A stretch of DNA of 64,000 nt from Candidatus Liptonbacteria bacterium. GTDB lineage: Bacteria; Patescibacteriota; Minisyncoccia; UBA6257; 2-01-FULL-56-20. The translations under genes were made by a program, and so were the position numbers. Position 1 is the first letter of the stretch, and every line of letters begins with the position of its first letter. The notes beneath the pieces were generated by a model. It saw nothing but the letters and a program-made list of their open reading frames with translations. It was not told where the DNA came from and did not search any database. The stretch covers positions 34,863 through 98,862 of the forward strand of contig VGJV01000001.1 in assembly GCA_016867315.1 (NCBI GenBank). The letters run 5' to 3'. Shown here piece after piece: positions 6,949 to 47,864 of the stretch.

Positions 6949-6951
6949 GGT

Positions 6952-8109: not shown

Positions 8110-8120
8110 TTATCCGGCAG

Positions 8121-11941: not shown

Positions 11942-11944
11942 TAT

Positions 11945-20258: not shown

Positions 20259-20729
20259 CTACTTATTATCCTCCCTTTTTATAGCTTCGAGGTAGTTCTT
20301 TAAAAGCCAAGAGCTGGATTGCACTTTCCCACCATCGCCGATATTAAAGACCATCTTGCAGTGAATTTCCTCGCATACGGGCACCTCGGGAATATTCGAG
20401 TGCGTGCGGTCTCCACCATTTGCAAAAATATCAGGCCGGAGTTCGCGAAGTTCCTGACACACGCTCATATCTTCCGGATTTTCAGGATGTTTCGTGAGCA
20501 TCACGGCATCTACCACACGCAGAGCTTCGATCACTTCTTTGCGCTCGGCCTCCGGCATAAATATATGCCGCTTCTTTTTTCGGAGCCAGTTGTCGTTATT
20601 CAGAATTACCACAAGTTTATCTCCCAACTTTTTTGCCTCCTCGAATAAACGCACGTGTCCTACGTGTATTGGATCAAACCCGCCGCTTACCGCCACTACG
20701 ATAGGTTTTTTGCTTTCTTTATTAGCCAT
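20259..20729 (-). CDS. cytidylyltransferase-fold nucleotidyltransferase (HldC/RfaE domain II or TagD-like)
   Basis: SGGFDPIHVGH (HxGH) motif, 156 aa. Confidence 0.7.
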   Translation of the reverse strand: MANKESKKPIVVAVSGGFDPIHVGHVRLFEEAKKLGDKLVVILNNDNWLRKKKRHIFMPEAERKEVIEALRVVDAVMLTKHPENPEDMSVCQELRELRPDIFANGGDRTHSNIPEVPVCEEIHCKMVFNIGDGGKVQSSSWLLKNYLEAIKREDNK

Positions 20730-20759
20730 AGTCCCTGATTATGGGGTAATATACACCAC

Positions 20760-22232
20760 ATGTTTGGACGGGTAAAATCCTTTCTTTTTAAGAATACTTC
20801 CACGCGACAGACCGTGGCGAAGAACACCTTCTGGCTTGGATTTTCCAATTTTGCCGGGAGGTTGATTCGCGCAGTCATTATCGTGTATGCAGCGCGCGTA
20901 TTGGGAGCCGATGGCTGGGGAATCTTTTCTTATGGCGTGACACTCGCAGCATTTCTTACTCCCTTTACGGATGTGGGGCTCAGCCAAGTGCTTATACGCG
21001 AAACAGCAAAAAATACTGACCCTGACCACCGCGCTCGCATCCTCTCCACCACGCTTTTTTTAAAATTCCTACTTCTCGCTGCCGCAATTGTCATAGTTCT
21101 TCTTATCGCCCCTCCTCTCACTACCCTCGAAGAAGCCAAACCTCTTCTTCCTTTGATTGCATTCCTCCTCGCCTTCGATACGCTTCGGGAATTCGGCTTT
21201 GCGATTATCCGCGCCATTGAGCGGATGGAATGGGAAGCAGGTCTTTTTATATTGACCAATATCGCGATCGTGGCGTGTGGATTTGTCTTCCTCGCCCTCT
21301 CTCCTACTCCGCTTTCCTTTACCTATGCCTATACCATTGGAACCGCAGTAGGGGCATTCGCTACATTTTTTGCCCTTCGTAAGCATTTTCCCCCTCGCTT
21401 TCTTTCGCGCTTCACTCCTTCACTTGTAAAACCTATTTTTGCGGCTGCGTGGCCACTTTCGATTGCCGCGCTCCTTGGACTTCTCATGCTGAATACCGAT
21501 ATCCTTATCATCGGCTGGCTCGGCTCGGCCACAGATGTGGGTTACTACTCTGCGGGATATAGGATCGTGCAGCTTCTCTACCTCCTCCCCGCGATTCTCG
21601 CGATCAGCCTTTTCCCTACTCTTTCACGACTGGCGAACAAAGATCAGGCGCTTATGCGCACCACTATAGAAAAAGCGCTCACGGTCGTATTTCTGGCCTC
21701 GCTCCCGCTTGCCGTAGGAGGAATTCTCCTCGGCCCTCAGCTCATTTCGCTTCTCTTCGGAGAAAGTTTTTTGCCTGCCACGGACTCTTTCCGCATTCTC
21801 CTTGCCACGCTCCTTATCGATTTTCCTGTCGTGATTCTTTCGAATGCCCTCTTTGCGTTTAATCTCCCTCGGAAGCTTACGGTGTACGCGGCGCTCGGAG
21901 GATTTTTGAATGTCCTGTTGGATTTCCTGCTCATTCCGCCTTTCGGCATTGTAGGATCCGCATGGGCCACCCTCTTCGCACAATTCGTGAGCACTGCGTA
22001 TCTCTGGGGAGCCCTCAGAACCAAAACGCCTTTCCGAGTATTCCCTCATTTGAAAATTGCGCTGACTGCCACTGTCTGCATGGCAATCGGGACGGTTTTT
22101 CTTAACGCCATTGGGGTGCATGTTCTCGGTACCATTGCCATCAGCGCCCTTATCTATGGCCTCGTGTTGTATTTCCTTAAAGAACCGACGCTTAAAGAAG
22201 TGCGGCAGGCAGTACTTCACTCTACTACCTAG
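20760..22232 (+). CDS. polysaccharide flippase (Wzx/MOP superfamily)
   Basis: 490 aa, about 12-14 TM helices, polysaccharide-biosynthesis-protein N-terminal pattern. Confidence 0.7.
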   Translation: MFGRVKSFLFKNTSTRQTVAKNTFWLGFSNFAGRLIRAVIIVYAARVLGADGWGIFSYGVTLAAFLTPFTDVGLSQVLIRETAKNTDPDHRARILSTTLFLKFLLLAAAIVIVLLIAPPLTTLEEAKPLLPLIAFLLAFDTLREFGFAIIRAIERMEWEAGLFILTNIAIVACGFVFLALSPTPLSFTYAYTIGTAVGAFATFFALRKHFPPRFLSRFTPSLVKPIFAAAWPLSIAALLGLLMLNTDILIIGWLGSATDVGYYSAGYRIVQLLYLLPAILAISLFPTLSRLANKDQALMRTTIEKALTVVFLASLPLAVGGILLGPQLISLLFGESFLPATDSFRILLATLLIDFPVVILSNALFAFNLPRKLTVYAALGGFLNVLLDFLLIPPFGIVGSAWATLFAQFVSTAYLWGALRTKTPFRVFPHLKIALTATVCMAIGTVFLNAIGVHVLGTIAISALIYGLVLYFLKEPTLKEVRQAVLHSTT

Positions 22233-23046
22233 AAAACAAGGCTTTTTTGAGCCGCGAGAGCGGCGTGTTTAAAAATTTTTTGAGAGTGGTGGGAAGATGC
22301 GCATATATTGAGTAGAGGATCGCGAACGCGGTGCCTTTGAGATAGCCGGGATACTTTTCTTTATAGCGATACACGATCCGAAACGCGGCACGGGCGGATT
22401 CTTTCTGCTTCGCAAAGGAAGCACCCTTCTCCCACATGGTGTACGCCGTGAAATACTCCGGGAAGTTATAGAGCTTCCCCCGGAGGCCTAGCTTCAGCCA
22501 AAAATCCCAGTCCGCAAATTGGCGCAAGGAGGTATCGTAATTTCCTACCTGTGTCGCAACGCTCCGGCGAAACACGGTCGTCGAGTTTGCCATCGGGTTG
22601 GCATAAAGCGCCCTGCTTCGAATCGCCTCATCTGCTTCCGGCTTCAGGGTTTTAAATAATTCTTTTCCTTCCGGATTCATCGCCACAATTCCTCCGCCGC
22701 AGCCCACGTAGTCGCGATGCGCATCGAGGAACGCAAGCTGTTTCCCTAGTTTTTTTGAATCTATCCACCAGTCGTCATCGTCCAAGATTGCGACATATTC
22801 CCCCGTCGCTTTTGCCAAACCGAAATTCGAAGCGTTCGCAATCGAACCTTTGGTTTCACGATGGAAATATTTGATGCGCGAGTCGGTCGAGAATCTTTTT
22901 ACCGCTTCGGCCGTCTCGTTGCCCGCGCTGTCGTCCACAATAATAAGTTCCCAGTCCGTTACCGTCTGCGCGAGGAGTGACTCGATGGATTTCGTGAAAA
23001 TATCCCCTCTCTCGCACGTCACGAGGAGGCCTGAAACTTTTGGCAT
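22225..23046 (-). CDS. glycosyltransferase family 2
   Basis: IIVDDSAGNET, ILDDDD (DXD) motifs. Confidence 0.75.
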   Translation of the reverse strand: MPKVSGLLVTCERGDIFTKSIESLLAQTVTDWELIIVDDSAGNETAEAVKRFSTDSRIKYFHRETKGSIANASNFGLAKATGEYVAILDDDDWWIDSKKLGKQLAFLDAHRDYVGCGGGIVAMNPEGKELFKTLKPEADEAIRSRALYANPMANSTTVFRRSVATQVGNYDTSLRQFADWDFWLKLGLRGKLYNFPEYFTAYTMWEKGASFAKQKESARAAFRIVYRYKEKYPGYLKGTAFAILYSIYAHLPTTLKKFLNTPLSRLKKALFSR

Positions 23047-23135: not shown

Positions 23136-24167
23136 ATGACTACTGAACTACTAACTAACCGAAGGAGCAACATTAAAGCTATATCGAAGATACTGGAAGA
23201 AACAGGACATCAGCGGCGGCAGTTTTTGAGACATTTAAATCTGCGACACTTCCCCGACGAGCACTACCCTCTGATCAATGGGGTGGTCTCCGCGGGATTC
23301 GCGGCCGAGCCTTTTGCGGGGCTCGACACAGAAAAACAGGATGAGCGCGAAAGCCACCGAGCTGTTTCTGGCGAAGGCGACGCCATTGCCCAACAAGTGC
23401 TCCTCACTGAACTTTCGGCAGCGTATCCCGATGCCGAATTTCTCCTTGAGGAAGATACATCACCGCATGCGAAATGCTTACCTAAGCAAAATCCTGAGGG
23501 GATTCTCCAGGGTAGAAAGATCGTGGGCGATCCAATCGACAGTTCCACGCGCTTCGGCGGGGACATGAGCCAATGGTGCACTGCGGCGGGCATGCTTCAG
23601 GATGGTCACGTCGTGGGCGGGGCAATCTTTGCTCCCACGATGAATGGCGGCCTCCTGGTCACGAGCCACAAGGGCAAAGGAGTTGTTGTCGTTGAGAAAG
23701 GCGGGCAAAAAGTGTTGACGGATACGACCCCTATTCTTCCTCGAGAGGTGAAAAAGAGTGTCGTACTCCTCGGCGTGGACACCCTGCAGTATCCGGCAAT
23801 CTGCAACTTCATCCCTAAAGTCACAACTGCAGTGCGCGGGGTCTATACGAGTGGGTCCGGAATTCTGGGTCTTGCTTTGGTCGCCGCAGGACGAGCTCAA
23901 GCGATCTTCCAGACTCCGCAAAGGATCTGGGACATCATCCCGGGGATTTGCGCTCTGCGCGAAGCTGGACGCACGGTGCTCTTCTATCGTCGGGACCCAC
24001 AAACCGGATTGCCTACTGAAGTTGGGTTGGACTTCCAAGCATTCTGCTATGATCGCCCGAATCGATTGGGTATCATCGCAGGCGATATTATGCTCGTAGG
24101 TTATCTTGCTCAATTGCTTCAGGAAGCCGGGCCGCTACTCAAGGCAGACGAGAGTCTCAAAGATTAA
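23136..24167 (+). CDS. inositol monophosphatase/CysQ family phosphatase
   Basis: Metal site EEDxS (LLEEDTSPH), DPIDSS, WDIIPG motifs. Confidence 0.7.
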   Translation: MTTELLTNRRSNIKAISKILEETGHQRRQFLRHLNLRHFPDEHYPLINGVVSAGFAAEPFAGLDTEKQDERESHRAVSGEGDAIAQQVLLTELSAAYPDAEFLLEEDTSPHAKCLPKQNPEGILQGRKIVGDPIDSSTRFGGDMSQWCTAAGMLQDGHVVGGAIFAPTMNGGLLVTSHKGKGVVVVEKGGQKVLTDTTPILPREVKKSVVLLGVDTLQYPAICNFIPKVTTAVRGVYTSGSGILGLALVAAGRAQAIFQTPQRIWDIIPGICALREAGRTVLFYRRDPQTGLPTEVGLDFQAFCYDRPNRLGIIAGDIMLVGYLAQLLQEAGPLLKADESLKD

Positions 24168-24230: not shown

Positions 24231-24260
24231 GAACCGACTTACCCTCGGTTCTTTTCTTTT
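24231..24260. terminator. bidirectional intrinsic terminator between convergent IMPase-like and hddC-like genes
   Basis: GAACCGA-cttaccc-TCGGTTC followed by TTTTCTTTTT. Confidence 0.5.
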
Positions 24261-25003
24261 TAAGCCTTCTCTTCCACTTGAAGCTTCTTTATGTTCTCCT
24301 CTACTTCTTTCCACTTCTCGAGCGTATCAATTCCCTTCGAGTAGTCGCCACATTCGTAGCTGTAGAATTTGAGGTTTTTTGCCACGATGTCCGGCAGAAG
24401 TTTTTTGCCGAGGTCATATTTAGTATTTTCCGGCACGTATTTTAAAATTTCTTTCCGCATAATAAATACGCCGCGCATGCGGTAGGCGTTCGGGTAGACT
24501 GCGCTGTGCGGCTTTGTGTGAATCGCGACGTACTTCCCGTCCGCATCGAGTTCGGCTACGTCCGCATCGGCGTAATTCTGGGTTTTTTTCATACGCTGCA
24601 TGCCTAGCGCATCCGCGGGTTTCTTCGCCCAGCTCTCCACCATCTTCGTGTAGTCTACAAGTGAGAAGGTGTCGCCGTAGATAAAAAAGAACTCGTCATT
24701 TAATTGACGCTCAAATGCCTTGATCCCTCCGGCGGAGCCGAGTGGTTCCTTCTCCACAAAATAATTAATTTTCACTCCCCACTTCGAGCCGTCACCGAAA
24801 TAACTCGTGGTTACATCAGGGAGATATTGGAGCGTGAAAAAAAATTCTTTGACGCCGTGTTTTTTGAACTGCTCCACGTGCCACTCGAGCATCGGTTTTC
24901 CCAGAATGGGGATCATCACTTTGGGAATCGTGTCGGTGGTAGGGCGCAACCGAGTCCCCATGCCCCCCGCGGCTATAACCGCCTGTGTAATTCGATTTTG
25001 CAT
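24260..25003 (-). CDS. sugar-1-phosphate nucleotidylyltransferase (HddC-like; start moved to MQNRITQAV)
   Basis: AAGGMGTRLRP (GxGTRxxP) motif; located with gmhA/gmhB/hddA. Confidence 0.75.
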   Translation of the reverse strand: MQNRITQAVIAAGGMGTRLRPTTDTIPKVMIPILGKPMLEWHVEQFKKHGVKEFFFTLQYLPDVTTSYFGDGSKWGVKINYFVEKEPLGSAGGIKAFERQLNDEFFFIYGDTFSLVDYTKMVESWAKKPADALGMQRMKKTQNYADADVAELDADGKYVAIHTKPHSAVYPNAYRMRGVFIMRKEILKYVPENTKYDLGKKLLPDIVAKNLKFYSYECGDYSKGIDTLEKWKEVEENIKKLQVEEKA

Positions 25004-25124
25004 GCAATAAGCGTACAGCATTTTGACTTTATAAGGAAATATTGTAAAACATGCCCAGCTCAATGAAACCACGATGCATATTGGAATTGTTGGGCATTAA
25101 CCTACTAACCCAAGGAAATTAGCT

Positions 25125-26138
25125 ATGAAAGAGGTTCCGTTAATTACGGACGGAGTGCAGCTTGAGGAATGGTTCCATGCGGATCCCAATGTCGTCGCTC
25201 GCACCATCCGGGCGGATGTCTATGACCAAAGTCTTATCATTCGACGATGGCCAGGCAATGTTCCCACAGTGGCGAGTCTTAAAGAGACCTTGCCTAAAAC
25301 TATCAACCGATGGTGGCAGATTGGCCGAGAAGATGATGCGGCAGTGTGTCCGATCAAAACCAAGCCCCAAACCGTGCTTCGCAACATGTTTGTTTACCAT
25401 GCTTATCACACGCAGACGCAACCAGTGAATAAGGAGCAGCAGGTTCTGACCGAAGCCAAGGTGGGTGGTATTGAAATTCAGCTTTATCCCAGCTTCTTCG
25501 CTCATGAAGGCCAGAATCACTTCCTCATTCTTCCTAAAGAATGTTGGTCTCGCGCCACCACTCAAATGGCGGGCGGCCCGGAGACTCTCGCGGGTATTAT
25601 CAAGCTCGCTCGGGAAACGATGCGCGAGAAGTGAAACGGGGATGGGGAGTTCAGTCTGCAGGTGGGCATCCATGCCGCGCAGAACCTGGTGCACGCGCAT
25701 TTTCACGTGTACCGCAATTTGGGCGGACTGGCGGACTTTGGACCAGCACGGATCGATCTCTACAAGTCTATTGTGAGTCCCTCCCTCCACATCTCTGAGC
25801 GCAATGATCTCATTCTCGCGGCAGGAGGGCTGAGAACTGGTCAAGTGCTATTTCTCCCCACAGACACACGCAACCGACCCGAATTCGATGATGCGTTCGC
25901 TCGTGAGCTTTATGGAGTGACTGATGTTTACACCCGAAAACTCATGAGCGTGCAGAACAATCCGGTGGACTTTGCCTTCGAAATTTCGGTGCGTCATGGG
26001 CGGGTAGCATTCGGTGGGGCATATCCGGTTGTCGGCCCACTCGGGACGATGGAGTTTTTCGCACCGCTCATGCCGGAAGCGAAATACTTCAATATTGGTT
26101 GGCCGGAGGAAGAAACTCTGAAACTCTGGTCCAATTAA
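25125..26138 (+). pseudogene. HIT-superfamily (GalT/Apa2-like two-domain) gene interrupted by an in-frame TGA at 25632-25634
   Basis: ORFs 25125-25634 and 25662-26138 are in one frame; HIT motif VHAHFHVY lies 18 codons after the TGA, preceded by the GIHAAQ(N) pattern typical of HIT proteins. Confidence 0.5.
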
Positions 26139-26179
26139 ACCAACAATTCAAAATTTTAAGAGAAAGGATTAAAAACTAC

Positions 26180-26211
26180 GGGGACTGTTCGCCATTTGGC
26201 AGACAGTCCCC
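26180..26211. terminator. bidirectional intrinsic terminator between convergent HIT-like and gmhB genes
   Basis: GGGGACTGT-N14-ACAGTCCCC, A-run before and T-rich after. Confidence 0.5.
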
Positions 26212-26231
26212 TTAGTCATTTTTGCGATTCA

Positions 26232-26783
26232 CTACTTCGTGAACTCGAGAATTTTCGCGGCGGCGGCTTGCATGTCGGAAACAGCGTAATCAGGTTTCGC
26301 ATTCGGGAAAAACTTTTCATCTTCTTTCCCCCCTTCCCCTCCTTCAATCAGGATGGTCTTCATCCCTCCGCGCTTGCCGGTTTCTACATCGCGAAGCGAA
26401 TCTCCCACCATCCAGCTTTGCGAAAGGTCGATGCCAAATTTTACCGCAGCTTCTTGCACCATTCCCTGATCGGGCTTCCGACACGTACAGTGCTGAGGCT
26501 CCCTGAAACGGTGCGGACAGATAAAGGCTGCGTTAATTGTTGCGCCTTCAGCGGCGAATTTTTCCATAAGTACGCGATTAATTTCGTCGCCTTGCTCCCG
26601 GGTGATCTTGCCTTTCTCGATGATTGGCTGATTGGTCAATATGACGCAGAGAAATCCTGCGTCGTTCAGCTTCTTTACTCCTTCTATTGCGCCCGGCAGA
26701 ATCTTCAGTTGCTCGGGACTCGTGAGTTCCAGTACATATTCGATAAGAGTTCCATCTCGGTCCAGAAAAACTGCTTTTTTCAT
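26232..26783 (-). CDS. gmhB: D-glycero-D-manno-heptose 1,7-bisphosphate phosphatase (HAD-IIIA)
   Basis: FLDRDGTL, Zn-binding CPHRFREPQHCTCRKP, MVGDS motifs. Confidence 0.85.
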   Translation of the reverse strand: MKKAVFLDRDGTLIEYVLELTSPEQLKILPGAIEGVKKLNDAGFLCVILTNQPIIEKGKITREQGDEINRVLMEKFAAEGATINAAFICPHRFREPQHCTCRKPDQGMVQEAAVKFGIDLSQSWMVGDSLRDVETGKRGGMKTILIEGGEGGKEDEKFFPNAKPDYAVSDMQAAAAKILEFTK

Positions 26784-26871
26784 TAAAAAATTTCTAATAT
26801 CTAATTACTAATTCCTAACTAAATCCCAATTTCCAGAAATGCCCCTTAGAAATTAGGAATTAGAAATTTCT
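26784..26871. repeat. AT-rich intercistronic repeat element, copy Y (gmhA-gmhB spacer); related to 10924-11038
   Basis: Inverted repeat TAATTCCTAA/TTAGGAATTA plus shared blocks with copy X; both copies lie between co-directional minus-strand genes in the same orientation. Confidence 0.5.
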
Positions 26872-27480
26872 CTAGGCTTTCTGCACGCTCTCCCACTTGC
26901 CATCAATCTGCTTGAAATTGGGGTGACTTACGATCAAGTGCCAGACCACCGCTTGGAAACTTTCCGTGTGCGGAGTTACCGTTTCGGGATTCACTACCGG
27001 GACCACCACGCAGGCATCAGAAACAGTTTTCGTGTATCCCCCGTCGCGGCCTACTACTCCCATTATTTTTGCTCCTTTGGACTTTGCATATTTCAACGCT
27101 TCCACAATGTTCACGCTCACTTTCTTTTCGGCATTCCCTCCTCCCACCGAAAACACCATCACTCCATCTTTTTGAGAAAGCTTGCTGCCTTCGAGCCACT
27201 TCGCGAACACCGAATCCCAGCCGTCGTCGTTTACGCGGGCGGAAAATTCCGCCACGTTGTCTACGGGAGTGTAGGACTCGATACCCGCGATTTTTCGAAA
27301 ATCATTTACCGCGTGGCTCGCATGCCCCGCTCCCCCTCCTACGCCCAAAATAAAAAGTCGGCCGTGATTCGCACGGATGTCTTTCAAAATATCGATCATA
27401 CTTCCAATCGCGGAGTGATCAATACCATCAATGATTTGTTTCGCTTCCGCGAAATAGGCTTCGATGTAGGGCTTATGCAT
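26872..27480 (-). CDS. gmhA: sedoheptulose-7-phosphate isomerase (SIS domain)
   Basis: SIS motifs LGVGGGAGHASH, VFSVGGG; 202 aa. Confidence 0.85.
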   Translation of the reverse strand: MHKPYIEAYFAEAKQIIDGIDHSAIGSMIDILKDIRANHGRLFILGVGGGAGHASHAVNDFRKIAGIESYTPVDNVAEFSARVNDDGWDSVFAKWLEGSKLSQKDGVMVFSVGGGNAEKKVSVNIVEALKYAKSKGAKIMGVVGRDGGYTKTVSDACVVVPVVNPETVTPHTESFQAVVWHLIVSHPNFKQIDGKWESVQKA

Positions 27481-27575
27481 ATAAATAATTGCAACTTATG
27501 ACTTGACCGATGACAAGAGAATACAAGAAAATCGTATTTCCGTCAATCGCTCGTCTAACTTCTAATGGTTAATAG

Positions 27576-28406
27576 TTAGACTTTCCGGCGCAAGGTATAC
27601 CGGTCGGTTTTCATAAGCTCTGCTATTTCTTTCGGACTCCACTTTTCATATTCATCCCAGACTGCGCTCAGAAATTTACCCGAGAGACCATTCGAAGCCT
27701 CGGAAGCGAGAAACACGCACATTGCGGCAGCTTTCTCTGGAGGGATACCCCCTTCGGTTTTTTGCTTTAATAATTTCTCGTAACGCTCCTTTCCCACTTT
27801 TTCTTCTCCCGCTTCTAGGGCTTCATCCAAGAACTTGGTATTTACCGCCCCAGGCGCAAAGCAATTTATTTCAATTCCAAATTCTTTCAGTTCCGCCGCC
27901 ATGGTTTCCGTGAGGCGCACGATTGCACCTTTCGAAGCATGGTATGCGCTAAAACGCGGCAAAGGACCATCCCCTCCTCCGGAGAAATTAATTATCTTCC
28001 CGAATTTTTGAGCTTTCATGTGGGGAATTACCTCCTGCATCATACGGAAGGTGCCGAAGACGTTGATTTCGAAGGTATCTTTCCATTTCTCAAAATCCAC
28101 CTCTTCCGAAGGCCCAATGGGGCCATAAATCCCGGCTGCATTCACCAGTACGTCTATTTTTCCGAAGGCCCGCAAGGTCGTTTCGACCAGCGTCTTTACA
28201 TCGCCTTCTCGGGAAACATCCGAGGGACAGCCTTCCACATCGGGAAATTTTTTCCGAAGCTCCTCACACGCATCCCGGATTTCCAGGCGGTTGCGGGCGG
28301 CTATCATTACCTTCGCTCCTTCTTTCAAATATGCTTCTGTAATCGCCAAGCCTATGCCGCGACTGCCGCCGGTCACGAGTGCTACCTTATTTTCCAGCTT
28401 GGGCAT
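27576..28406 (-). CDS. short-chain dehydrogenase/reductase (classical SDR)
   Basis: TGGSRGIG, NAAG, YxxxK (YHASK) motifs. Confidence 0.8.
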   Translation of the reverse strand: MPKLENKVALVTGGSRGIGLAITEAYLKEGAKVMIAARNRLEIRDACEELRKKFPDVEGCPSDVSREGDVKTLVETTLRAFGKIDVLVNAAGIYGPIGPSEEVDFEKWKDTFEINVFGTFRMMQEVIPHMKAQKFGKIINFSGGGDGPLPRFSAYHASKGAIVRLTETMAAELKEFGIEINCFAPGAVNTKFLDEALEAGEEKVGKERYEKLLKQKTEGGIPPEKAAAMCVFLASEASNGLSGKFLSAVWDEYEKWSPKEIAELMKTDRYTLRRKV

Positions 28407-29388
28407 AGACTTTTTCTACAATCTTTAAAACTTCCAATACATCTTCGCCTTTAGATTGGAGTTCCATCTCCCCCCCGATCACCGCGGCGAATTCTTCGAG
28501 CTCCCGCACAAACGAATCCTCCTTTTTTTCCTCCGGAAAAGGTGTCACGGTTTCCACTGGGAACTTGCCGGAGCGCGGATCCACTTTCCCTACCGTAAGC
28601 TTTTCGGGACCGCGATAGCGCTTATCCAAGCCGTCTACCGAAAGGTATCCTTTGTCGCCAAAAATCTCGAAGGAATGCACCCATTCCCAGTTTGTCCAGC
28701 TCACATGAATTTGCGCTACGCGTTTGTCCGCAGTGCGAAGCAGGAGAAATCCGTTATCTTCCACTTCTCCTCCCCAAAAGAGATTCTCTGCAAATCCCAG
28801 GGCATCGACAAAATCGCCCATAAACCACCGAGCCATGTCGATCATATGCATTCCTTGATCGATGAGTTCTCCGCCGCCGCTTATTTTCTTATCGAAGCGC
28901 CACTCTTTTTCATAACCGGCGCGGCCGCCGAAACCATATCTCGCGCGGACGCAGATCACTTTGCCAATTTCGCCTTTGTCTACGAGCTTCTTCGCTTCCA
29001 TGTATGCCGGGTGATACCGATGATTGAAACCGATCATATATATCCTTTTCGCGCTGGCCGCGAGTCTCAAATTCTCGGCCACTTCGGCACTCGAGATGCC
29101 CGTAGGCTTTTCGCAAAGCACATGCTTTCCGGCTTCAAGCGCAGATTTCGAAATGGGAGCTAAAAAGGCGTGTGGAGTGGCTATCACGACCGCTTCGAAA
29201 TCACCCTTCTCCAAGGCTTCTTTTATGTCGCCGTAGATCGCAGCCCCAGGGAATCCATCAGCAATGGTTTTCGCTTTGGCTGCATCTATATCTACTACCG
29301 CTTTCACCTCGAATTCTTTGGCTTGCTTCAAAGCATCCGCCCAAATTTTGCCGATACCTCCGGCTCCCACTAATGCGAGTTTTATCAT
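28387..29388 (-). CDS. Gfo/Idh/MocA-family NAD(P)-dependent sugar oxidoreductase
   Basis: N-terminal Rossmann LALVGAGGIG, EKP motif (LCEKP), C-terminal alpha/beta domain. Confidence 0.8.
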   Translation of the reverse strand: MIKLALVGAGGIGKIWADALKQAKEFEVKAVVDIDAAKAKTIADGFPGAAIYGDIKEALEKGDFEAVVIATPHAFLAPISKSALEAGKHVLCEKPTGISSAEVAENLRLAASAKRIYMIGFNHRYHPAYMEAKKLVDKGEIGKVICVRARYGFGGRAGYEKEWRFDKKISGGGELIDQGMHMIDMARWFMGDFVDALGFAENLFWGGEVEDNGFLLLRTADKRVAQIHVSWTNWEWVHSFEIFGDKGYLSVDGLDKRYRGPEKLTVGKVDPRSGKFPVETVTPFPEEKKEDSFVRELEEFAAVIGGEMELQSKGEDVLEVLKIVEKVYAQAGK

Positions 29389-30683
29389 CGTCCGATACTT
29401 ATATAGGTTATTCCCGCCCCTTTTATTTCTTTTTCCTTATCACACAAAATATTTTGCGCGTCGAAGAGCGCGGGCTGTTTCATGACTGACTGGAGTTTCG
29501 CAAAATCCAAGGTTTTAAAGTCTTTCGAGGGGGTTATAATAAGCACCGCATCCGCACCCTCGGCGGCCTCGTAGGCATCTTTAAAGAACGGGGAAGGGGT
29601 TACTGCTTTTACCTCTTCCGGATTTGCAAGCGGATCATAGAGTCGGAACGAGGCGCCAGCTTCCCGAAGCATTTTTTCCACTTCAAGCGCCTGCGAGCGC
29701 CGAAGCGTGGGAGTCCCGGCTTTGTACGTAACTCCCAAGAGCGCAATTGTTTTTCCCCTCACGTTTCCTCCCCACATTTCTTCTAACCTAGTTTTTACTA
29801 ATTCATTTCTTACACGATTCTTTTGGAGCACTCCTTGAATCACCGGCAAAGGAAGTTTTTCCCGTTCACCAGCATGTATTAGTGCTTTAAGGTCTCGTGC
29901 GAGCGTACCTCCGGAGAATCCAAGCCCTGCAAAGAGGTATGCCTTGGGTCCCACCCGAGGGTCGGACTTCAAGGCCCTGATCACATCTTCAATATCGCCG
30001 CCCATTTTCCCCGATACATCCGCGAGATCATTCGTGAAACTAATGCACGTCGCCAAAAACGCATTCAGGGCATGTTTCGCCATTTCGGCCGAAGGTACGG
30101 ACATCGATACTATTTCCACTTTGAGCGGAGCGAAAATCTCCGTTGCGCGCGCCAAGGCTTCCGAGGTATCCCCTCCCAGTACCACCCGACCGGGTTCGAG
30201 GAAACATTTTACCGCATCTCCTAGCCTCAGATTCTCCGGAGAATATACATATTCGAAGTGCAGTTCCGGACGAGCGGCGCGAATCAACTCACAAAGTTTT
30301 TTAGAGGTGCCTACGGGCAATTGGCTCGAAACTCCTACGAGCACATTGTCTCGAAGGAAAGGCGCGGCTTTCTCTACCGCTTCTACCACCACGGAGATAT
30401 CCACTTCATCTTGATCGTCTACCGGCGTGTCGAAAGTAATCCAAATTGCGTTGCAATCTTTCAAGGCCAGCCAGTCGGAAGAATATGCGAGCGTGCCTGC
30501 GGTGCGGTGCTTCTCGATAAGTTCCGTGAGGCGAGGCTCTGCAAGAGGAGGAATATTTTTATTAAAATTCGCGATGACTGCCTCGTCATCGCTTACACCC
30601 ACCACCGAATGCCCTGCTTCCGCAAAACCTGCCGAATACACTTCGCCCAAATGCCACAACCCTATCACCCCTATTTTCACCAT
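29385..30683 (-). CDS. nucleotide-sugar 6-dehydrogenase family protein (UGDH-like) lacking the catalytic cysteine; start moved to MVKIGVIG
   Basis: SDPRVGPKAYLFAGLGFSGGTLARD aligns to the UGDH GFGGSC(F/L)PKD active-site region with Cys->Thr, Lys->Arg; N-terminal glycine motif reads GVIGLWHLG. Confidence 0.65.
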   Translation of the reverse strand: MVKIGVIGLWHLGEVYSAGFAEAGHSVVGVSDDEAVIANFNKNIPPLAEPRLTELIEKHRTAGTLAYSSDWLALKDCNAIWITFDTPVDDQDEVDISVVVEAVEKAAPFLRDNVLVGVSSQLPVGTSKKLCELIRAARPELHFEYVYSPENLRLGDAVKCFLEPGRVVLGGDTSEALARATEIFAPLKVEIVSMSVPSAEMAKHALNAFLATCISFTNDLADVSGKMGGDIEDVIRALKSDPRVGPKAYLFAGLGFSGGTLARDLKALIHAGEREKLPLPVIQGVLQKNRVRNELVKTRLEEMWGGNVRGKTIALLGVTYKAGTPTLRRSQALEVEKMLREAGASFRLYDPLANPEEVKAVTPSPFFKDAYEAAEGADAVLIITPSKDFKTLDFAKLQSVMKQPALFDAQNILCDKEKEIKGAGITYISIGR

Positions 30684-30690
30684 AAGATAT

Positions 30691-31419
30691 TTAAGCTTCG
30701 TATAACTTGTAACCGACTTTCTCACCGTCCTCGTAGAACATCTTTACCGTTTCCTGCGAAAGTGTGTACAGATCATAATCCAACTTTTCTAATTTTTTCA
30801 AAATATCCGGAGTTACCGTTACGATGTGGCAACCCATTTTTTCAGCCTGGAGAATATTCAGAAGCTCCCGTGTGCTCGCCCAAAGAAGTTCCGCGACGGA
30901 ATTCGATGCTAGGATTTTTTTTGCCTCTTCCATATACGGCAACGGATCTCTTCCGGTATCCGCGATCCGGCCAGCAAACACCGAGACTATAGAGGGCACC
31001 TTCGGAGAAAGCACCGCGGCCACTTCTTTTACCTGCTCTACCGTAAGAATTGCGGTTACATTTACTTTCACTCCTTTCTCCACGAGTTTTTTAATCAACG
31101 GCGCAGAGGATTCTTTCTTGGTGTTCATCACTGGAATTTTCACGTAGACATTGTTCGCCCAGGAATTGATGAGCATAGCCTGCCGCTCCATCTCCACAAA
31201 ATCGTCGGAGAACACCTCAAAAGAAATGGATTTCCCGGTAATCGAGGCGAGTACGTCTTTCGCAAAAGCGGCGTAATCGGTTACTCCTGCTTTCCGCATG
31301 AGCGTGGGATTCGTGGTGAGCCCCTGGATATACGGCTTTGACGCAAGCTCCACCATACTTGCCTTCTCGGCGCCATCCGCAAAAATTTTTATGCGTAACT
31401 CTTCAATTTTCCTACTCAT
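30691..31419 (-). CDS. tal: transaldolase / fructose-6-phosphate aldolase family (short form)
   Basis: TTNPTL motif, Schiff-base lysine region VYVKIP; about 240 aa. Confidence 0.8.
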   Translation of the reverse strand: MSRKIEELRIKIFADGAEKASMVELASKPYIQGLTTNPTLMRKAGVTDYAAFAKDVLASITGKSISFEVFSDDFVEMERQAMLINSWANNVYVKIPVMNTKKESSAPLIKKLVEKGVKVNVTAILTVEQVKEVAAVLSPKVPSIVSVFAGRIADTGRDPLPYMEEAKKILASNSVAELLWASTRELLNILQAEKMGCHIVTVTPDILKKLEKLDYDLYTLSQETVKMFYEDGEKVGYKLYEA

Positions 31420-31427
31420 ATTTTAGT

Positions 31428-32414
31428 TTAGAGATCTACCAGCACCTTAGAGCCCTCAAAGTCGAACCGATAACTCATTTCTCGCAAACCAAATTGCTTC
31501 ATCGCTGCCCGAAATTCCCTGTGCTTCTCCGGTACATAGAAAGTGAAAAATCCTCCCCCTCCCGCACCAGAGATTTTCCCCCCCAGCGCTCCCGCAGCTT
31601 TCCCCGCGTCGTATATTTTATCGAATTCCGGATTTGAAACTTTGCTTGACGTGCGCTTTTTGTGCTGCCAGTGTGCATCAAAGAGCTTCCCCACTTCGTC
31701 TACATCGTCCGACTCCATAGCTTCCAGTATTTGCTGGCCAATTTCTTTTATATAATGCATGCTCTCAATCACATCCTTCGCTTCTTCCTTCATCCCCTTC
31801 GATTGCTCGGCAAGCACTACATCCGCACTGCGCTTCACTCCCGTGAAAAACATAAGCATGTTTCGATTCAATGTATCCGCGGTAATTCGCGAAACATTCG
31901 CCTTGCGCACTTTCACGCTGCCGTCTTTCGCAATATCTAATACTGTAAGTCCTCCGAATGCCGCCATATAGGGGTCCTGCTTTCCTATCGGCCGGCCCAT
32001 TACCTTATTCTCAATCGTAAAATCTTCTTCTGCGAGCGTTTCCTGAGGAACATACTCCCGCTTCAATGTGTGTAAGGCGTGGAGTACCGCCACCGCAAAA
32101 CAACTCGAGGAGCCAAGTCCCGTCCCCGCGGAGACATCCGCCACCGTCGAAATTTCGATCTGCTTTTCGATACCTATAAGTCGCAAAATTTCCCGGAAGA
32201 GGCCATGTTTCACTTCGTTTATGCTTGCGACGTATTCCGCCTCGCTGTATTTCAGCCGAATCAGATCATCTTCCATCGGGCGGTTTACGCTCGCGAACAT
32301 ATATTTGTCGATTCCCGCGGAGAAAATAAACCCGCCGTGTTTCTCATAGTATGACGGCAAGTCCGTTCCTCCTCCTCCTAAGGTTACCCGAAATGGGGTG
32401 CGTGTAATGATCAT
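31428..32414 (-). CDS. hddA: GHMP kinase, D-glycero-alpha-D-manno-heptose 7-phosphate kinase-like
   Basis: GHMP motif SAGTGLGSSS, N-terminal TPFRVTLGGGGTD. Confidence 0.7.
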   Translation of the reverse strand: MIITRTPFRVTLGGGGTDLPSYYEKHGGFIFSAGIDKYMFASVNRPMEDDLIRLKYSEAEYVASINEVKHGLFREILRLIGIEKQIEISTVADVSAGTGLGSSSCFAVAVLHALHTLKREYVPQETLAEEDFTIENKVMGRPIGKQDPYMAAFGGLTVLDIAKDGSVKVRKANVSRITADTLNRNMLMFFTGVKRSADVVLAEQSKGMKEEAKDVIESMHYIKEIGQQILEAMESDDVDEVGKLFDAHWQHKKRTSSKVSNPEFDKIYDAGKAAGALGGKISGAGGGGFFTFYVPEKHREFRAAMKQFGLREMSYRFDFEGSKVLVDL

Positions 32415-32420: not shown

Positions 32421-33347
32421 TTATTTAATATTACCTTTTTTGAATTCTGCCTTCATCCAATCCACCTGCGCTCGAAGCCCTTCTTCGAGGGATGTCTTCG
32501 GCGCCCATCCTAATTTTTTCGCCTCACTCCAGTCGGCGAGCGTGGCCACTGGAGGGTCCTCTGCTCCGCGAGGTTTCATTATTGGGTCTGGAGTTACACC
32601 CATAACTTTTACGATCGTGTCATACACTTCTTTTATAGAAGTGGATTCCCCACTTCCGAGGCGGAACATTTTGTTTTTCACTCGATCGTCCGAAAGGCAT
32701 AACATATGAAAATCATTTATATCATCCACATATACAAAATCTCTTTTGTTTTCGTCGTCTCCTTCAAAAATTACCGGTTGCTTCCCTTTCAAGAACGCAA
32801 TAATGAGCTTACTCATTACGGGCGGAGATTTCCGGCGATAATCTTGGCGCGGGCCATACAAATTGAAATAGCGGAGGCTCACAACGTCCATCTCAAAAGC
32901 CGCCCGGTATCCTTCCGCAATCCGAGCATCCGTGAGTTTGGAAATGGCATAAAACCCTTTGAGGCGCTCATCGCCCTCTTCCACTGCCGAAGATTCGGCA
33001 TACATCGTGCGGGGCACATTCGCCAGTCGCGCCGCTTCAAATACGTTTGCAGTACCCGTGACATTTATATCCATCGTCTCTACCGGATCCGCTTGGCAGT
33101 CGGGCAGGCAATTCTTTGCCGCGAGGTGAAACACCCGATCAATCCCCTTGAAAAGCGGATATATATCTTTCGAACGAATATCGGCTTTATGGAATTCCAC
33201 TCCGCCGGGCACCTGATCTTTGCGGCCGCACTCAAGATTGTCGATCCCTACTACGCGATGCTCTGCGGCAACCAAACGATCCGCCAGGTTACTCCCAATA
33301 AACCCTGCCACGCCGGTTATTAACACATTTAATTTCCCTTCGCGCAT
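32421..33347 (-). CDS. NAD-dependent nucleotide-sugar epimerase/dehydratase (SDR extended)
   Basis: ITGVAGFIGSNL, YAISK (YxxxK). Confidence 0.8.
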   Translation of the reverse strand: MREGKLNVLITGVAGFIGSNLADRLVAAEHRVVGIDNLECGRKDQVPGGVEFHKADIRSKDIYPLFKGIDRVFHLAAKNCLPDCQADPVETMDINVTGTANVFEAARLANVPRTMYAESSAVEEGDERLKGFYAISKLTDARIAEGYRAAFEMDVVSLRYFNLYGPRQDYRRKSPPVMSKLIIAFLKGKQPVIFEGDDENKRDFVYVDDINDFHMLCLSDDRVKNKMFRLGSGESTSIKEVYDTIVKVMGVTPDPIMKPRGAEDPPVATLADWSEAKKLGWAPKTSLEEGLRAQVDWMKAEFKKGNIK

Positions 33348-41119: not shown

Positions 41120-41572
41120 TTATCTGGATTGTACGGTCCACACATCCCCCCACCCAAAAGGATCGAAACGCTTGTCGTCTGCCCGAGATTCGTTGGTCGT
41201 TGCATTCGAAGCGCAGATCAAAACCGTGTTCGGCTCGAGGGATACCCAGCCATTCGCAAAACCGGGAGGAATCACAATTACCTGATTTTTGCGTTCGGAA
41301 CTTATAAACGTAAATTTTTCTTCCGGGTTTTTAGGATTGACCGCCACGAATTTTGCAGCTCCCGCCACAATCCCGAAGATTTTCCACTCTTTTTCGTGAT
41401 AGTGAAACCCTCGCACCACATTCGCCGCATGATTGTATACATAATATACCCGCTTAATTCCTCCCATCGCTTTGAAAAGTTCCGGATTTTTCTCGGCATC
41501 CAAAAAAGGCGAGAATACGCCCCGATCATCGGCAAATACAGCTCCTTCGAAGGCCTGAGGTTTCTTTTCCAT
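41120..41572 (-). CDS. cupin-fold nucleotide-sugar isomerase/epimerase (FdtA/WxcM/RmlC-like)
   Basis: 150 aa; RGFHYHEK His pair as in sugar 3,4-ketoisomerases. Confidence 0.55.
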   Translation of the reverse strand: MEKKPQAFEGAVFADDRGVFSPFLDAEKNPELFKAMGGIKRVYYVYNHAANVVRGFHYHEKEWKIFGIVAGAAKFVAVNPKNPEEKFTFISSERKNQVIVIPPGFANGWVSLEPNTVLICASNATTNESRADDKRFDPFGWGDVWTVQSR

Positions 41573-42522
41573 TAGAACGAGTACTGCGAGAGATGTTTCG
41601 CGTTCGAGTACGCGCTGTGACCGATGTTTTTCATTCTTTTCTCTTTTACCAGCGTCACAAACTCCCGCACTCCATATTCTACATCCCGATCGGTGGGAAG
41701 CGTGAGTACTCCGTCTTTCAAAGCCTTCGCGAAACTCACTCGATAGTTTCTTTTGTCTTCCCGGAACTGTCCCGCGTACTGCAAATCACAACCCGTGATG
41801 GCCTGTACCTTTTTGGCAATTTCCTCCACACTGAAATTCTGCGTGGCTACGTTATAGACTCCCTTCAAGGGCGAGTCGAGGGTGGAGACGATCACTTTTG
41901 CAATATCGCGCACGTGAATATTCGGCCGCCACTGACTGCCTCCGAATACCATAATTTTCCCTTTCGCTGCGGCGTTTGTCGCAAAGGTGTTAATCATCAA
42001 ATCCGTCCGAGGCCGGCTGAATGTATCCGAGATTCCGAACGCGGTTCCCAAGCGCAAGATCACCGCGTTTTTCTTCAAAAGATATTTTTCCGCATCCACC
42101 TTAGTTACGCCATAGAGCGATACCGGGGCAGTGTCATGCTCCTCTGTTGCTTCTTCTTCGCGATGGCCGTAGACCGAACAGGTGGAGGTGAATATAATCC
42201 GACCGTCGAAATTTTCAGAGAGCCACTTGGGCGCAAGCTCATTGATCTCGACCGCGGCTTCGGGGTGAATCGAACAGGCTCCATCCCCCACAATCGCGGC
42301 GAGCCAAATCACGTGCGAATATTCGGGGAGAATTTTTTTTAAAAGTTCTTTATCCCGCACATCGCCGTACACAAAATCCACGGGCTTCAAATACCGTTCT
42401 TCGTATACCAAACTGTCGAACACCGTGAAGGGAATTTTTTTCTCGAGAAGTTCGTCGGTAACGGCACCGCCCACATAGCCTGCGCCACCCACTACGAGCA
42501 CCCGTTTTATATTCGAATTCAT
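41572..42522 (-). CDS. NAD-dependent epimerase/dehydratase (SDR extended; start moved to MNSNIKR)
   Basis: VVGGAGYVGG, YGVTK (YxxxK). Confidence 0.75.
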   Translation of the reverse strand: MNSNIKRVLVVGGAGYVGGAVTDELLEKKIPFTVFDSLVYEERYLKPVDFVYGDVRDKELLKKILPEYSHVIWLAAIVGDGACSIHPEAAVEINELAPKWLSENFDGRIIFTSTCSVYGHREEEATEEHDTAPVSLYGVTKVDAEKYLLKKNAVILRLGTAFGISDTFSRPRTDLMINTFATNAAAKGKIMVFGGSQWRPNIHVRDIAKVIVSTLDSPLKGVYNVATQNFSVEEIAKKVQAITGCDLQYAGQFREDKRNYRVSFAKALKDGVLTLPTDRDVEYGVREFVTLVKEKRMKNIGHSAYSNAKHLSQYSF

Positions 42523-42560
42523 AGGAATTTGTACGCGTAATAATAACAATAAAGTCTCTA

Positions 42561-43625
42561 CTACGTCAACGACTTGGCCCACTCAATTGTGCGCTCCAGG
42601 CCCTCGTCAAAAGAAGTGAGGGGGAACTTTCCCATTTCCTTTTGGATTTTCGAGAGGTCGAGTTTCACGACTTGCGGTTCCCTGCCAATGTGCCGCAGTG
42701 TGGACTTTTTCTTGGGTACCACTACGGAGGCACCACATTCTTTTCCAATTTTTTTCGCAAGTTCCCGAATGCTCAAACTGTCTTTTCCTCCTACGTTATA
42801 CACCATTTCCTTCCCGTGAAATCCCGCGTAGAGAATCATTGCGATCACGTCCGCGATGTAGCCGTAGGTTTTGACTGCCCGGCCCTCATCGAGGAGCGCG
42901 ATCTGTTTTCCTTCGAGCGCTTTTCGGATAAAGTCGCTCATCACGCGCGTGTCTGTCCGAGAAAGTCCTGGTCCGTAGACATGCGAGATGCGCACGATTT
43001 TGGCCGTAATCCCGAAATGGCTGGCATAGAACGCGGAGAGCGATTCTCCTAACCGCTTGGATTCTCCATAGATCGCGCGCGGGGTGTGGAGCGGCGGATT
43101 GCCGTTGTAGGTTTCTTTTACCGGAAGCTCCGCCGCAGGAATATCTCCATATACTTCCGCAGAGCTAAAAAAAATAAACCGGCCTCGGCTTTTCCGCGCA
43201 TGCTCAAGCAGACTTTGTGTCGCCGCTACATTCACCGCCACAGTGGAGCTGGGATTCTCCAAAAATTTAGCTGGCTGGCCGTACCCAGCGCCATGAAAAA
43301 TCACATCCCATCGGCCTTCTAGAGCAAACGGACGAGATAAATCTTTTTTTATGAAACGGATTTCTTTTTGGAGGAGAAGCTCTTTTAATACCGGCCCTGG
43401 GATTCCTCTGCCAATTCCCACAATCTCACAGGATACGTTTTGGGCCCGCTTTGCAGCTACCAGCGCTTGCACCACATACTGCCCCAGAAAACCAGAGGCT
43501 CCCGTTATCAAAATTTTTTTGCCTTTGAGATCACTCCCCTTTATCCATGGGAGGATCGCCTTACAGTCCTCTTCTATTATGGAAATTCCGCTATTCGCTG
43601 GACTCAATTTTCTTTTTTTTCGCAT
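42561..43625 (-). CDS. NAD-dependent epimerase/dehydratase (UDP-glucuronate decarboxylase-like; start at internal ATG, overlaps upstream gene about 35 nt)
   Basis: ITGASGFLG, YGESK (YxxxK). Confidence 0.7.
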   Translation of the reverse strand: MRKKRKLSPANSGISIIEEDCKAILPWIKGSDLKGKKILITGASGFLGQYVVQALVAAKRAQNVSCEIVGIGRGIPGPVLKELLLQKEIRFIKKDLSRPFALEGRWDVIFHGAGYGQPAKFLENPSSTVAVNVAATQSLLEHARKSRGRFIFFSSAEVYGDIPAAELPVKETYNGNPPLHTPRAIYGESKRLGESLSAFYASHFGITAKIVRISHVYGPGLSRTDTRVMSDFIRKALEGKQIALLDEGRAVKTYGYIADVIAMILYAGFHGKEMVYNVGGKDSLSIRELAKKIGKECGASVVVPKKKSTLRHIGREPQVVKLDLSKIQKEMGKFPLTSFDEGLERTIEWAKSLT

Positions 43626-45432: not shown

Positions 45433-45478
45433 GGCCTCATTGTGGCAGACAAACCTCGAAAACTCAACTTTAAAGGGC

Positions 45479-46639: not shown

Positions 46640-46658
46640 CGTCGAAAGTGGAGGTGTA

Positions 46659-47852: not shown

Positions 47853-47864
47853 AAAAGTGTATAG

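Follow-up and report, generated by a model that had tools for sequence, protein, structure and literature searches.

A widespread transaldolase-containing operon that probably makes a nucleotide-activated higher-carbon sugar, seen in a Candidatus Liptonbacteria glycan locus

Why would a glycan locus in a bacterium of the candidate phyla radiation (CPR) carry a transaldolase amid genes that resemble those for an activated heptose? The locus lies in a 64-kb stretch of a Candidatus Liptonbacteria genome (the window, whose 64 kb our gene inventory covers), and a first-pass annotation had assigned positions 24260-32414 to a complete GDP-D-glycero-alpha-D-manno-heptose pathway with its own transaldolase. 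We consider it likely that this span is the Liptonbacteria copy of a widespread, experimentally uncharacterised operon that would supply the glycan locus around it with a nucleotide-activated higher-carbon aldose. The gene set recurs as an operon in the best 80 species representatives of GTDB and in 25 metagenome contigs, across more than 10 phyla, and thus its grouping is not due to chance. Within this set the transaldolase looks, from sequence comparisons, like an integral and cassette-specific pathway enzyme and not a mere supply gene.

A recurrent operon with a fixed transaldolase

The genes of the cassette in the window, and the open reading frame (ORF) embedded in it, are as follows.

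24260-25021, minus strand: NTP_transferase-family sugar-1-phosphate nucleotidyltransferase with the motif GGMGTRLRP (GxGTRxxP) (PF00483, 93 bits)
25125-26138, plus strand: ORF of the GalT branch of the HIT superfamily with an HxHxH motif and an in-frame TGA at 25632-25634 (profile and fold searches)
26232-26783, minus strand: GmhB-like HAD-IIIA phosphatase with a Zn loop (TIGR01656 and TIGR01662, above cut-offs)
26872-27480, minus strand: SIS_2 isomerase, a remote GmhA relative (SIS_2)
27576-28406, minus strand: classical short-chain dehydrogenase/reductase (SDR) (adh_short, 182 bits)
28387-29388, minus strand: GFO/IDH/MocA oxidoreductase, here the GFO enzyme (Pfam)
29385-30683, minus strand: UDP-glucose/GDP-mannose-dehydrogenase-family enzyme, a nucleoside diphosphate (NDP)-sugar dehydrogenase (TIGR03026, 297 bits)
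30691-31419, minus strand: transaldolase of the TIGR02134 type (TIGR02134)
31428-32414, minus strand: HddA-like GHMP sugar kinase (Pfam GHMP_kinases_N/C)
32421-33347, minus strand: GalE/WbgU-like NAD-dependent epimerase, abutting the kinase gene (Pfam Epimerase)

All of the genes that the first-pass annotation had named are present where it had placed them, based on the ORF listing and on Pfam and NCBIfam searches. Its description of the genome as CPR-like is borne out as well: the kinase is identical to the NCBI protein of a Candidatus Liptonbacteria metagenome-assembled genome (Parcubacteria, CPR) and turns up again in several metagenome assemblies of Logan and JGI. The genes from 36413 down to 26232 are tightly packed on one strand, and a run of glycosyltransferase genes beyond the epimerase extends the block past 36413. 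The whole cassette is embedded in ∼38 kb of glycan genes (14.7-53.4 kb), among whose other products are Wzx, a Wzy-like protein, Bac_transf, GMD, a thiamine pyrophosphate (TPP) enzyme and aminotransferases.

Relatives of the cassette are abundant. A search with the kinase returned at least 8000 proteins at E <1e-20, and the best 120 of these are at least 69% identical to the query and come from Liptonbacteria, Kaiserbacteria, Paceibacterota and Minisyncoccia; homologues are named in the databases either ‘galactokinase’ or ‘D-glycero-alpha-D-manno-heptose-7-phosphate kinase’, the latter by JGI. When one genome per species was scanned, a kinase relative was found in at least 567 GTDB species. 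The best 80 species are drawn from CPR, Acidobacteriota, Planctomycetota, Omnitrophota, Aminicenantes, Elusimicrobia, the Planctomycetes-Verrucomicrobia-Chlamydiae (PVC) group, Deltaproteobacteria, Kryptonia and others, with kinase identities of 54-86%, and the SIS isomerase is 55-89% identical across phyla. The first-pass annotation had considered a heptose-containing surface glycan unexpected for a genome that looks reduced and Gram-positive-type or CPR-like; the close CPR homologues among those best 120 speak against that view, as does a KEGG-based survey of freshwater CPR in which Paceibacteria stood out as having genes for heptose biosynthesis (PMC9166423). The cassette is nothing unusual for a CPR bacterium of the Paceibacteria type.

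Gene content was counted in 50 loci in which the kinase gene has 6 kb or more of sequence on either flank, scoring homologues of window proteins within 9 kb of that gene. The SIS isomerase is present in 48, the transaldolase in 46, the GmhB-like phosphatase and the epimerase in 45 each, the SDR in 41, the GFO enzyme in 39, the nucleotidyltransferase in 36 and the dehydrogenase in 20. Outside CPR the usual order is epimerase-nucleotidyltransferase-kinase-(dehydrogenase)-SDR-GFO-phosphatase-SIS-transaldolase, and the epimerase is the conserved first gene of the cassette, while a minimal five-gene form (kinase-transaldolase-SIS-phosphatase-nucleotidyltransferase) occurs in loci L027, L029 and L040. 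Two variants depart from these arrangements: an Aminicenantes locus (L056, 12871-14118) has a phosphofructokinase (PFK)-family kinase in the usual place of the GmhB-like phosphatase, and in a complete CPR genome (L040, 10956-13034) the gene for a 692-aa GFO-FAD oxidoreductase fusion separates those of the kinase and the transaldolase.

Two further copies lie in cultured bacteria. Rhizobium jaguaris CCGE525 carries the cassette at about 971.5-979.4 kb of a 2.58-Mb replicon (NZ_CP032695.1; 4664-12525 of locus L095, where the transaldolase gene is at 11818-12525), with a transaldolase 64% and an SIS isomerase 63% identical to those of the window; this strain is culturable, so that the question posed here is directly testable. 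Plasmid 3 of Lawsonia intracellularis (L094, NC_008014.1) carries the full cassette, with a transaldolase 55% identical to the window enzyme. Because the Lawsonia operon is plasmid-borne, its product could be a surface antigen. In this pig pathogen the cassette adjoins a GH99-like gene, a methyltransferase gene and an ABC transporter.

The transaldolase scores 325.6 bits against TIGR02134 (cut-off 281.95) and is the sole protein of the set above an equivalog cut-off. Its residues D15, E68, K94, T122 and F148 align with D6, E60, K86, T110 and F132 of the T. acidophilum transaldolase (3s0c). They include the Schiff-base lysine, the catalytic glutamate and aspartate, and a phenylalanine in place of the tyrosine of fructose-6-phosphate aldolase. 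On this alignment, the window protein is a true transaldolase and not a fructose-6-phosphate aldolase.

The transaldolase gene is tied closely to the isomerase gene. It is found in 54 of the 58 loci with a window-type SIS isomerase (93%) and is directly adjacent to the isomerase gene, on the same strand, in 44 of the 58; in several of the non-adjacent cases the phosphatase gene alone lies in between. When we sampled by the transaldolase instead, using 25 metagenome contigs with at least 4 kb on either side and transaldolase identities of 57-68%, both the SIS isomerase and the kinase were present in 23 contigs and the remaining two had the phosphatase or the kinase. Furthermore, the cassettes draw on two transaldolase subfamilies. 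Copies in CPR, Rhizobium, Lawsonia and some Acidobacteriota have the TIGR02134 type, and those elsewhere a divergent type. The divergent enzymes of the non-CPR copies reach neither the TIGR00875 nor the TIGR02134 cut-off, and thus are not the usual housekeeping enzyme. If the transaldolase served to supply sedoheptulose 7-phosphate (S7P), a transketolase gene next to the cassette would have favoured that role. We found no transketolase beside the cassette; the large unassigned ORFs near cassettes encode the GFO-FAD fusion, PFK, Wzy, MurJ, a GT4-methyltransferase, asparagine synthase, a heparinase-like protein and GH2.

Predicted pathway and reach of the family assignments

Reading each step from enzyme family and synteny, we propose that the chemistry would be that of the GDP-D-glycero-alpha-D-manno-heptose route with the transaldolase as an integral step, and that the end product would be a modified sugar. 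The transaldolase, as the first committed enzyme, would form a ketose phosphate, which the SIS_2 isomerase, with its GmhA-like metal and acid-base site, would convert to an aldose omega-phosphate. The HddA-like GHMP kinase would phosphorylate O-1, the anomeric position (to the alpha anomer, by analogy with HddA), the Zn-loop HAD-IIIA phosphatase would take the omega-phosphate off the 1,omega-bisphosphate, and the NTP_transferase protein would carry out the last core step, yielding an NDP-sugar. Tailoring would fall to the GalE-like epimerase, the Cys-less dehydrogenase related to UDP-glucose 6-dehydrogenase (UGDH), the GFO enzyme and the SDR, probably through redox chemistry at a secondary carbinol, for example C6. 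The NDP-sugar would be consumed by glycosyltransferases encoded upstream and transcribed in the same direction.

How far do the family assignments hold? The kinase matches structures of heptose kinases (HddA/WcbL type; 3k85, 4usk/4usm, 4n3o) with 128-158 bits, while fucokinase reaches 58, mevalonate kinase 47 and galactokinase 41. It thus groups with HddA and not with galactokinase or mevalonate kinase, the outcome by which the first-pass annotation would have been refuted. Among NCBIfam models HddA (NF049969) is its best match by far, at 163.9 bits (90 for the next family), but the cut-off of that model is 600; the first-pass label of an HddA-type kinase is right as to the closest family, and the score stops short of backing orthology.

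The isomerase had been called GmhA. It has the SIS_2 fold, but scores only 49.8 bits against TIGR00441 (GmhA; cut-off 209.45) and is a remote relative, 24% identical to Escherichia coli GmhA. Its PDB matches are phosphoheptose isomerases (E ∼1e-7), the sole other being the weakest and non-significant (an AI-designed TIM barrel, E 0.006). Residues H56/D60/E173/H181 align with GmhA H61/E65/Q172/H180, and this conserved tetrad makes a GmhA-like mechanism plausible. Compared with E. coli GmhA and the HygP-like SIS protein, both of which use S7P, it has 6-9 extra residues in the S-T/C-S-G-N...S-A/P-N loop, which is short in those two references. In GmhA this loop binds the substrate phosphate. Its remodelling may hint at a substrate other than S7P, and we treat it as a lead, not a test.

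The phosphatase has the DxDGT motif and, as the first-pass annotation had noted, the GmhB-type Zn insert, C89-P-H91-x7-C99-T-C101 (CPHx7CTC). It is nevertheless below the GmhB equivalog models, with 129 bits against 178 for PRK08942 (beta) and 79 against 250 for the alpha model.

In contrast to these three enzymes, for which the heptose family is the nearest, the nucleotidyltransferase does not fit the HddC-like identity that had been given to it. Its NCBIfam scores are 113 bits for the ManC type, 112 for the archaeal GlmU type, 94 for MurU, 88 for long RmlA and 87.7 for HddC (NF049965, cut-off 300), and its best structural match is UDP-glucose pyrophosphorylase (UGPase; 8x7s, 114 bits), ahead of HddC (5xhw, 73) and RmlA (56-62); short RmlA ranks below all of these. 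By these scores it is neither specifically HddC-like nor a member of the RmlA clade, the grouping that would have spoken against the first-pass assignment. For the core as a whole, these comparisons back the pathway logic at the level of families and do not back orthology to the heptose enzymes.

Four-electron oxidation of a sugar to the uronic acid by UGDH depends on a catalytic cysteine thiol. The cassette dehydrogenase matches UGDH (4a7p) with 241 bits, but has GGTLARD in place of GGSCFPKD, with the catalytic Cys replaced by Thr and Lys by Arg, and so lacks the Cys of the UGDH motif GGxCxxKD. Of 29 other cassette copies, 28 share the Cys-to-Thr change (GGTLxRD) and one, L045, has Ser; the Lawsonia copy has Thr too. 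Two non-cassette dehydrogenase paralogues in the same loci retain the Cys. Since the catalytic Cys is gone, the enzyme would not be expected to carry the oxidation through all four electrons to a uronic acid, and its likelier activity would be a two-electron carbinol oxidation, for example at the secondary hydroxyl on C6 of a heptose or octose. The GFO enzyme has inositol dehydrogenases and the sugar 3-oxidase DgpA as its nearest structures, the epimerase matches GalE and WbgU with 119-129 bits, and we infer the individual steps of both enzymes. The SDR is probably the ketoreductase partner of the GFO enzyme or of the dehydrogenase.

The first-pass annotation had also pointed to a second nucleotidyltransferase, of the HldC/TagD fold, outside the cassette. 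This protein and the features on that side of the cassette are the following.

20259-20729, minus strand: CTP_transf_like protein (HldC/TagD fold; PF01467)
23136-24167, plus strand: inositol monophosphatase (IMPase)-like protein, 343 aa, next to the nucleotidyltransferase gene (PF00459, 78.8 bits)
24231-24251, no strand assigned: terminator-like hairpin between the convergent IMPase-like and nucleotidyltransferase genes (terminator scan)

The fold of the 20259-20729 protein stands, in that it passes PF01467 and the generic TIGR00125, the only models that it passes; the specific families do not, with 76.0 bits against 181.5 for rfaE_dom_II and 56.6 against 165.4 for TagD. Its gene is found in 3 of the 50 cassette loci. 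On these scores the protein is placeable in neither the HldC nor the TagD family, and its linkage to the cassette is loose. A trio of nucleotidyltransferase, GT2 protein (273 aa) and cytidylyltransferase-like protein is encoded in L026 and L035 and, more loosely, in L029; the version in the window (20259-23046) is interrupted by genes for a Wzx flippase and the IMPase-like protein. An IMPase-like gene also lies beside the nucleotidyltransferase gene in the CPR loci L013, L014, L020, L023, L037 and L045, and together with the GalT-like ORF it is reminiscent of a pair of NDP-sugar phosphorylase and sugar-1-phosphate phosphatase.

Heptose or octose

The GDP-D-glycero-alpha-D-manno-heptose pathway, known from the S-layer of Aneurinibacillus thermoaerophilus and from capsules of Campylobacter, Yersinia and Burkholderia, uses the same four families in the same logical order, and the cassette has in common with it a kinase nearest to HddA/WcbL structures, the Zn-loop phosphatase and the GmhA-like tetrad. 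The cassette differs in adding a fixed transaldolase and four oxidoreductases/epimerases, and in a nucleotidyltransferase that is not specifically HddC-like. Thus, of the complete GDP-heptose pathway first proposed for the span, the four families of the GHMP-kinase (alpha) route stand, plus the transaldolase, and assignment to the heptose enzymes themselves does not, as the equivalog cut-offs are missed. Plain GDP-D,D-heptose is an unlikely product, given that the operon conserves four tailoring enzymes. Characterised S7P-fed heptose clusters are not known to include a transaldolase; our literature search found no transaldolase in heptose clusters and no octose in polysaccharide clusters.

The family-by-family match of the cassette with the lincosamide octose genes is striking: the LmbR transaldolase, LmbN isomerase, LmbP kinase, LmbK phosphatase and LmbO nucleotidyltransferase each have a counterpart. 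The two sets, compared by gene lists, share the clustering of a transaldolase with the four families as well as an epimerase, a dehydrogenase and an oxidoreductase. LmbL is taken to be UGDH-like and LmbZ to be GFO-like. The lmb genes lie in a compact lmbRSOPZNML block, in which LmbR and LmbN build octose 8-phosphate, LmbP, LmbK and LmbO convert it to GDP-octose, and LmbM (epimerase), LmbL (dehydrogenase), LmbZ/CcbZ (oxidoreductase) and LmbS complete the lincosamide sugar (PMC4351081, PMC7014725, PMC12945683). However, the lincosamide set is a Streptomyces antibiotic cluster and the cassette is a glycan operon in more than 10 phyla, in which an SDR stands in the place of the aminotransferase and the dehydrogenase is optional. 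A C6 aminotransferase of the LmbS type was not found within the cassette, either in the window or in the related loci; a DegT gene lies 14 kb off, at 46659-47852.

Hygromycin B-type genes (HygP isomerase, GHMP kinase, HAD phosphatase and a GalT-type nucleotidyltransferase) share the SIS, GHMP and HAD families with the cassette, but have no transaldolase, and HygP uses S7P (PMC10948575). Two Streptomyces plasmid clusters of this type, L096 (beside APH(7''), the gene for hygromycin-B resistance) and L097, encode SIS, HAD, GHMP kinase and a GalT-type transferase, again with no transaldolase; their kinases are 33-34%, their phosphatases 35% and their SIS proteins 27% identical to those of the window. 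A GalT/HIT-fold enzyme stands alongside, as in the window, but it has no BLAST similarity to the window ORF.

Two simpler accounts of the locus find little in their favour. That the transaldolase is a housekeeping pentose-phosphate enzyme placed by chance in a glycan locus is very improbable. The protein does pass TIGR02134, a housekeeping transaldolase family, and compact CPR genomes often place unrelated genes side by side; yet the linkage holds across more than 10 phyla, also when sampled by the transaldolase, it survives replacement by the other transaldolase subfamily, and the gene co-travels with the cassette into the Rhizobium and Lawsonia replicons, so that we regard this account as close to refuted. 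We give even less credence to a beta route to ADP-heptose with the 20259-20729 protein as HldC. This route shares the isomerase and phosphatase families, and rfaE domain II is the best NCBIfam match of that protein, but the likeness to HldC is distant, at 76 bits far under the cut-off of 181.5, and linkage to the cassette is seen in just 3 of 50 loci. Moreover, the kinase of the beta route is of the PfkB type, whereas the cassette kinase is a GHMP protein, and no PfkB-type HldA was found among the window ORFs scanned.

The main choice lies between two substrates of the isomerase. The cassette may be an Aneurinibacillus-type pathway from S7P to GDP-D-glycero-alpha-D-manno-heptose (GmhA, HddA, GmhB, HddC), in which the transaldolase only boosts S7P and the oxidoreductases modify the heptose later; we hold this possible, though at somewhat less than an even chance. 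On this account extra S7P would matter because a CPR cell draws its pentoses from hexoses via the non-oxidative branch. The kinase, isomerase and phosphatase all score best with heptose families, the GmhA catalytic and metal tetrad is conservatively retained, the window transaldolase is above an ordinary transaldolase-family cut-off with normal catalytic residues, and the kinase clade bears the JGI label of a heptose-7-phosphate kinase. Heptoses are frequent in glycans, from which straight-chain octoses are not known. The KEGG-based report of heptose biosynthesis in Paceibacteria (PMC9166423) agrees with such a pathway. However, the heptose equivalog cut-offs are all widely missed, the transaldolase is kept in 93% of loci, including those of Rhizobium and Acidobacteriota, the hygromycin-B-type clusters L096 and L097 do without one, no transketolase stands beside the cassette, and the SIS loop is unlike both S7P-using references. 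S7P is an ordinary pentose-phosphate intermediate that arises from transketolase, and transaldolase works near equilibrium; an extra transaldolase copy would therefore add little supply. The earlier view of the transaldolase as the source of S7P thus survives as a possible reading, weakened by the integral and cassette-specific character of the gene and by the sole biochemical precedent, which gives octulose 8-phosphate. That precedent underlies the other choice, to which we likewise assign rather less than an even chance, namely that the transaldolase moves a C3 unit from fructose 6-phosphate or S7P to ribose 5-phosphate, the SIS isomerase turns the resulting octulose 8-phosphate into octose 8-phosphate and an NDP-octose follows, whose C6-C8 would be reworked by the dehydrogenase, GFO enzyme, SDR and epimerase with a reductase in place of the lincomycin aminotransferase. 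LmbR and LmbN join ribose 5-phosphate and a C3 donor in this manner (PMC7014725), the lmb sugar genes comprise the same family set, and the lincosamide pathway is the sole one known to cluster a transaldolase with these four families, our literature search having found no other. An integral transaldolase, a dehydrogenase that lacks the Cys for four-electron oxidation and would suit oxidation of a secondary C6 carbinol, and an SIS loop remodelled relative to S7P enzymes all fit an octose. Yet the likeness to the Lmb proteins is seen at the level of family names, with those of LmbL and LmbZ assumed; the cassette has no aminotransferase; the dehydrogenase is missing from 30 of 50 cassettes while the SDR and GFO enzyme persist; the window transaldolase is ordinary-looking; and straight-chain aldo-octoses are not known from bacterial polysaccharides.

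For the product itself, a C7 sugar made with erythrose 4-phosphate as acceptor, through S7P, comes close to an even chance, and a C8 sugar made with ribose 5-phosphate as acceptor, through octulose 8-phosphate as with LmbR and LmbN, is a real possibility at somewhat less than that; a product with neither seven nor eight carbons is unlikely. We suggest only tentatively that the lincosamide octose pathway has its primary-metabolism counterpart in the cassette, and perhaps its evolutionary origin too, and that the cassette provides NDP-octose or 8-deoxy-octose for surface glycans.

Several observations weigh against our reading of the operon as a higher-carbon aldose pathway with an integral transaldolase. 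No core enzyme attains its NCBIfam heptose equivalog cut-off (HddA 164/600, HddC 88/300, GmhA 50/209, GmhB 129/178), so that we infer even the class of the substrate, and the nucleotidyltransferase is by its scores assignable to no particular nucleotide or sugar. Sampling by the transaldolase is biased, in that it favours relatives of cassette transaldolases, although within its 57-68% identity no free-standing transaldolase context was found, and in the window three tailoring genes lie between the transaldolase and the isomerase.

The outcome bears on how CPR bacteria decorate their envelope and on over-calling of the pentose-phosphate pathway in them. If the transaldolase is the committed step, the cassette would be the second natural case of sugar chain building driven by a transaldolase, after lincomycin, and the first in cell-envelope biosynthesis. 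If the product is an octose, straight-chain C8 aldoses would be a widespread and overlooked glycan block in CPR, Acidobacteriota, Planctomycetota, Rhizobium and Lawsonia, and some ‘pentose-phosphate transaldolase’ calls in CPR reconstructions would really denote a glycan enzyme.

The interrupted GalT-like frame and the wider locus

The ORFs at 25125-25634 and 25662-26138 form a single frame that is divided by the TGA at 25632-25634. The truncated 169-aa product recurs on at least 12 contigs, which stem from 6 or more independent samples. Pfam gave no match for this ORF, which was placed by profile and fold searches; its AlphaFold (AF2) model (pLDDT 76.6, pTM 0.81) matches ADP-glucose phosphorylase and GalT (E 5e-9). 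The GalT-like family to which it belongs has 47 members with an invariant HxHxH, and all five source-named members are from Patescibacteria or Parcubacteria. The nearest full-length homologue (P0001) is 56% identical, has Phe at the position of the TGA, and is encoded between a nucleotidyltransferase and two GmhB-like HAD genes; more distant copies lie between the phosphatase and nucleotidyltransferase genes in L013, L014 and L029. Based on the model, the intact protein is a candidate accessory NDP-sugar phosphorylase or transferase, and in this population the ORF is a fixed pseudogene, a split gene or a case of read-through, possibly inactive.

Two other origins of the TGA were ruled out. An assembly error does not account for the recurrence of the same 169-aa product across contigs and samples, and a recoded genome (genetic code 4 or 25) does not agree with the use of TGA as the stop codon of 12 of the 56 window genes or with the other ORFs being intact.

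Rfam and tRNA scans of the span revealed no relevant RNA element. By eye, we noted a further hairpin at 26180-26211, between the convergent GalT-like ORF and the GmhB-like gene.

Elsewhere in the glycan locus, genes at 41572-48824 (minus strand) encode a TPP-dependent enzyme (613 aa), class I/II and DegT aminotransferases, several SDR epimerases/reductases and an RmlC/FdtA-like isomerase, which suggests a second sugar pathway in the locus, for a branched-chain or amino-deoxy sugar. Outside it, four ORFs in a row at 5531-9101 (minus strand; 208, 262, 385 and 326 aa) have no Pfam match and lie between the genes for thymidylate synthase and GroEL. Finally, two genes of the dihydroorotate-dehydrogenase family (167-1348 and 2947-4098, minus strand) lie around genes for orotidine monophosphate (OMP) decarboxylase and a phosphoribosyltransferase, the second being a weak and partial DHO_dh match.

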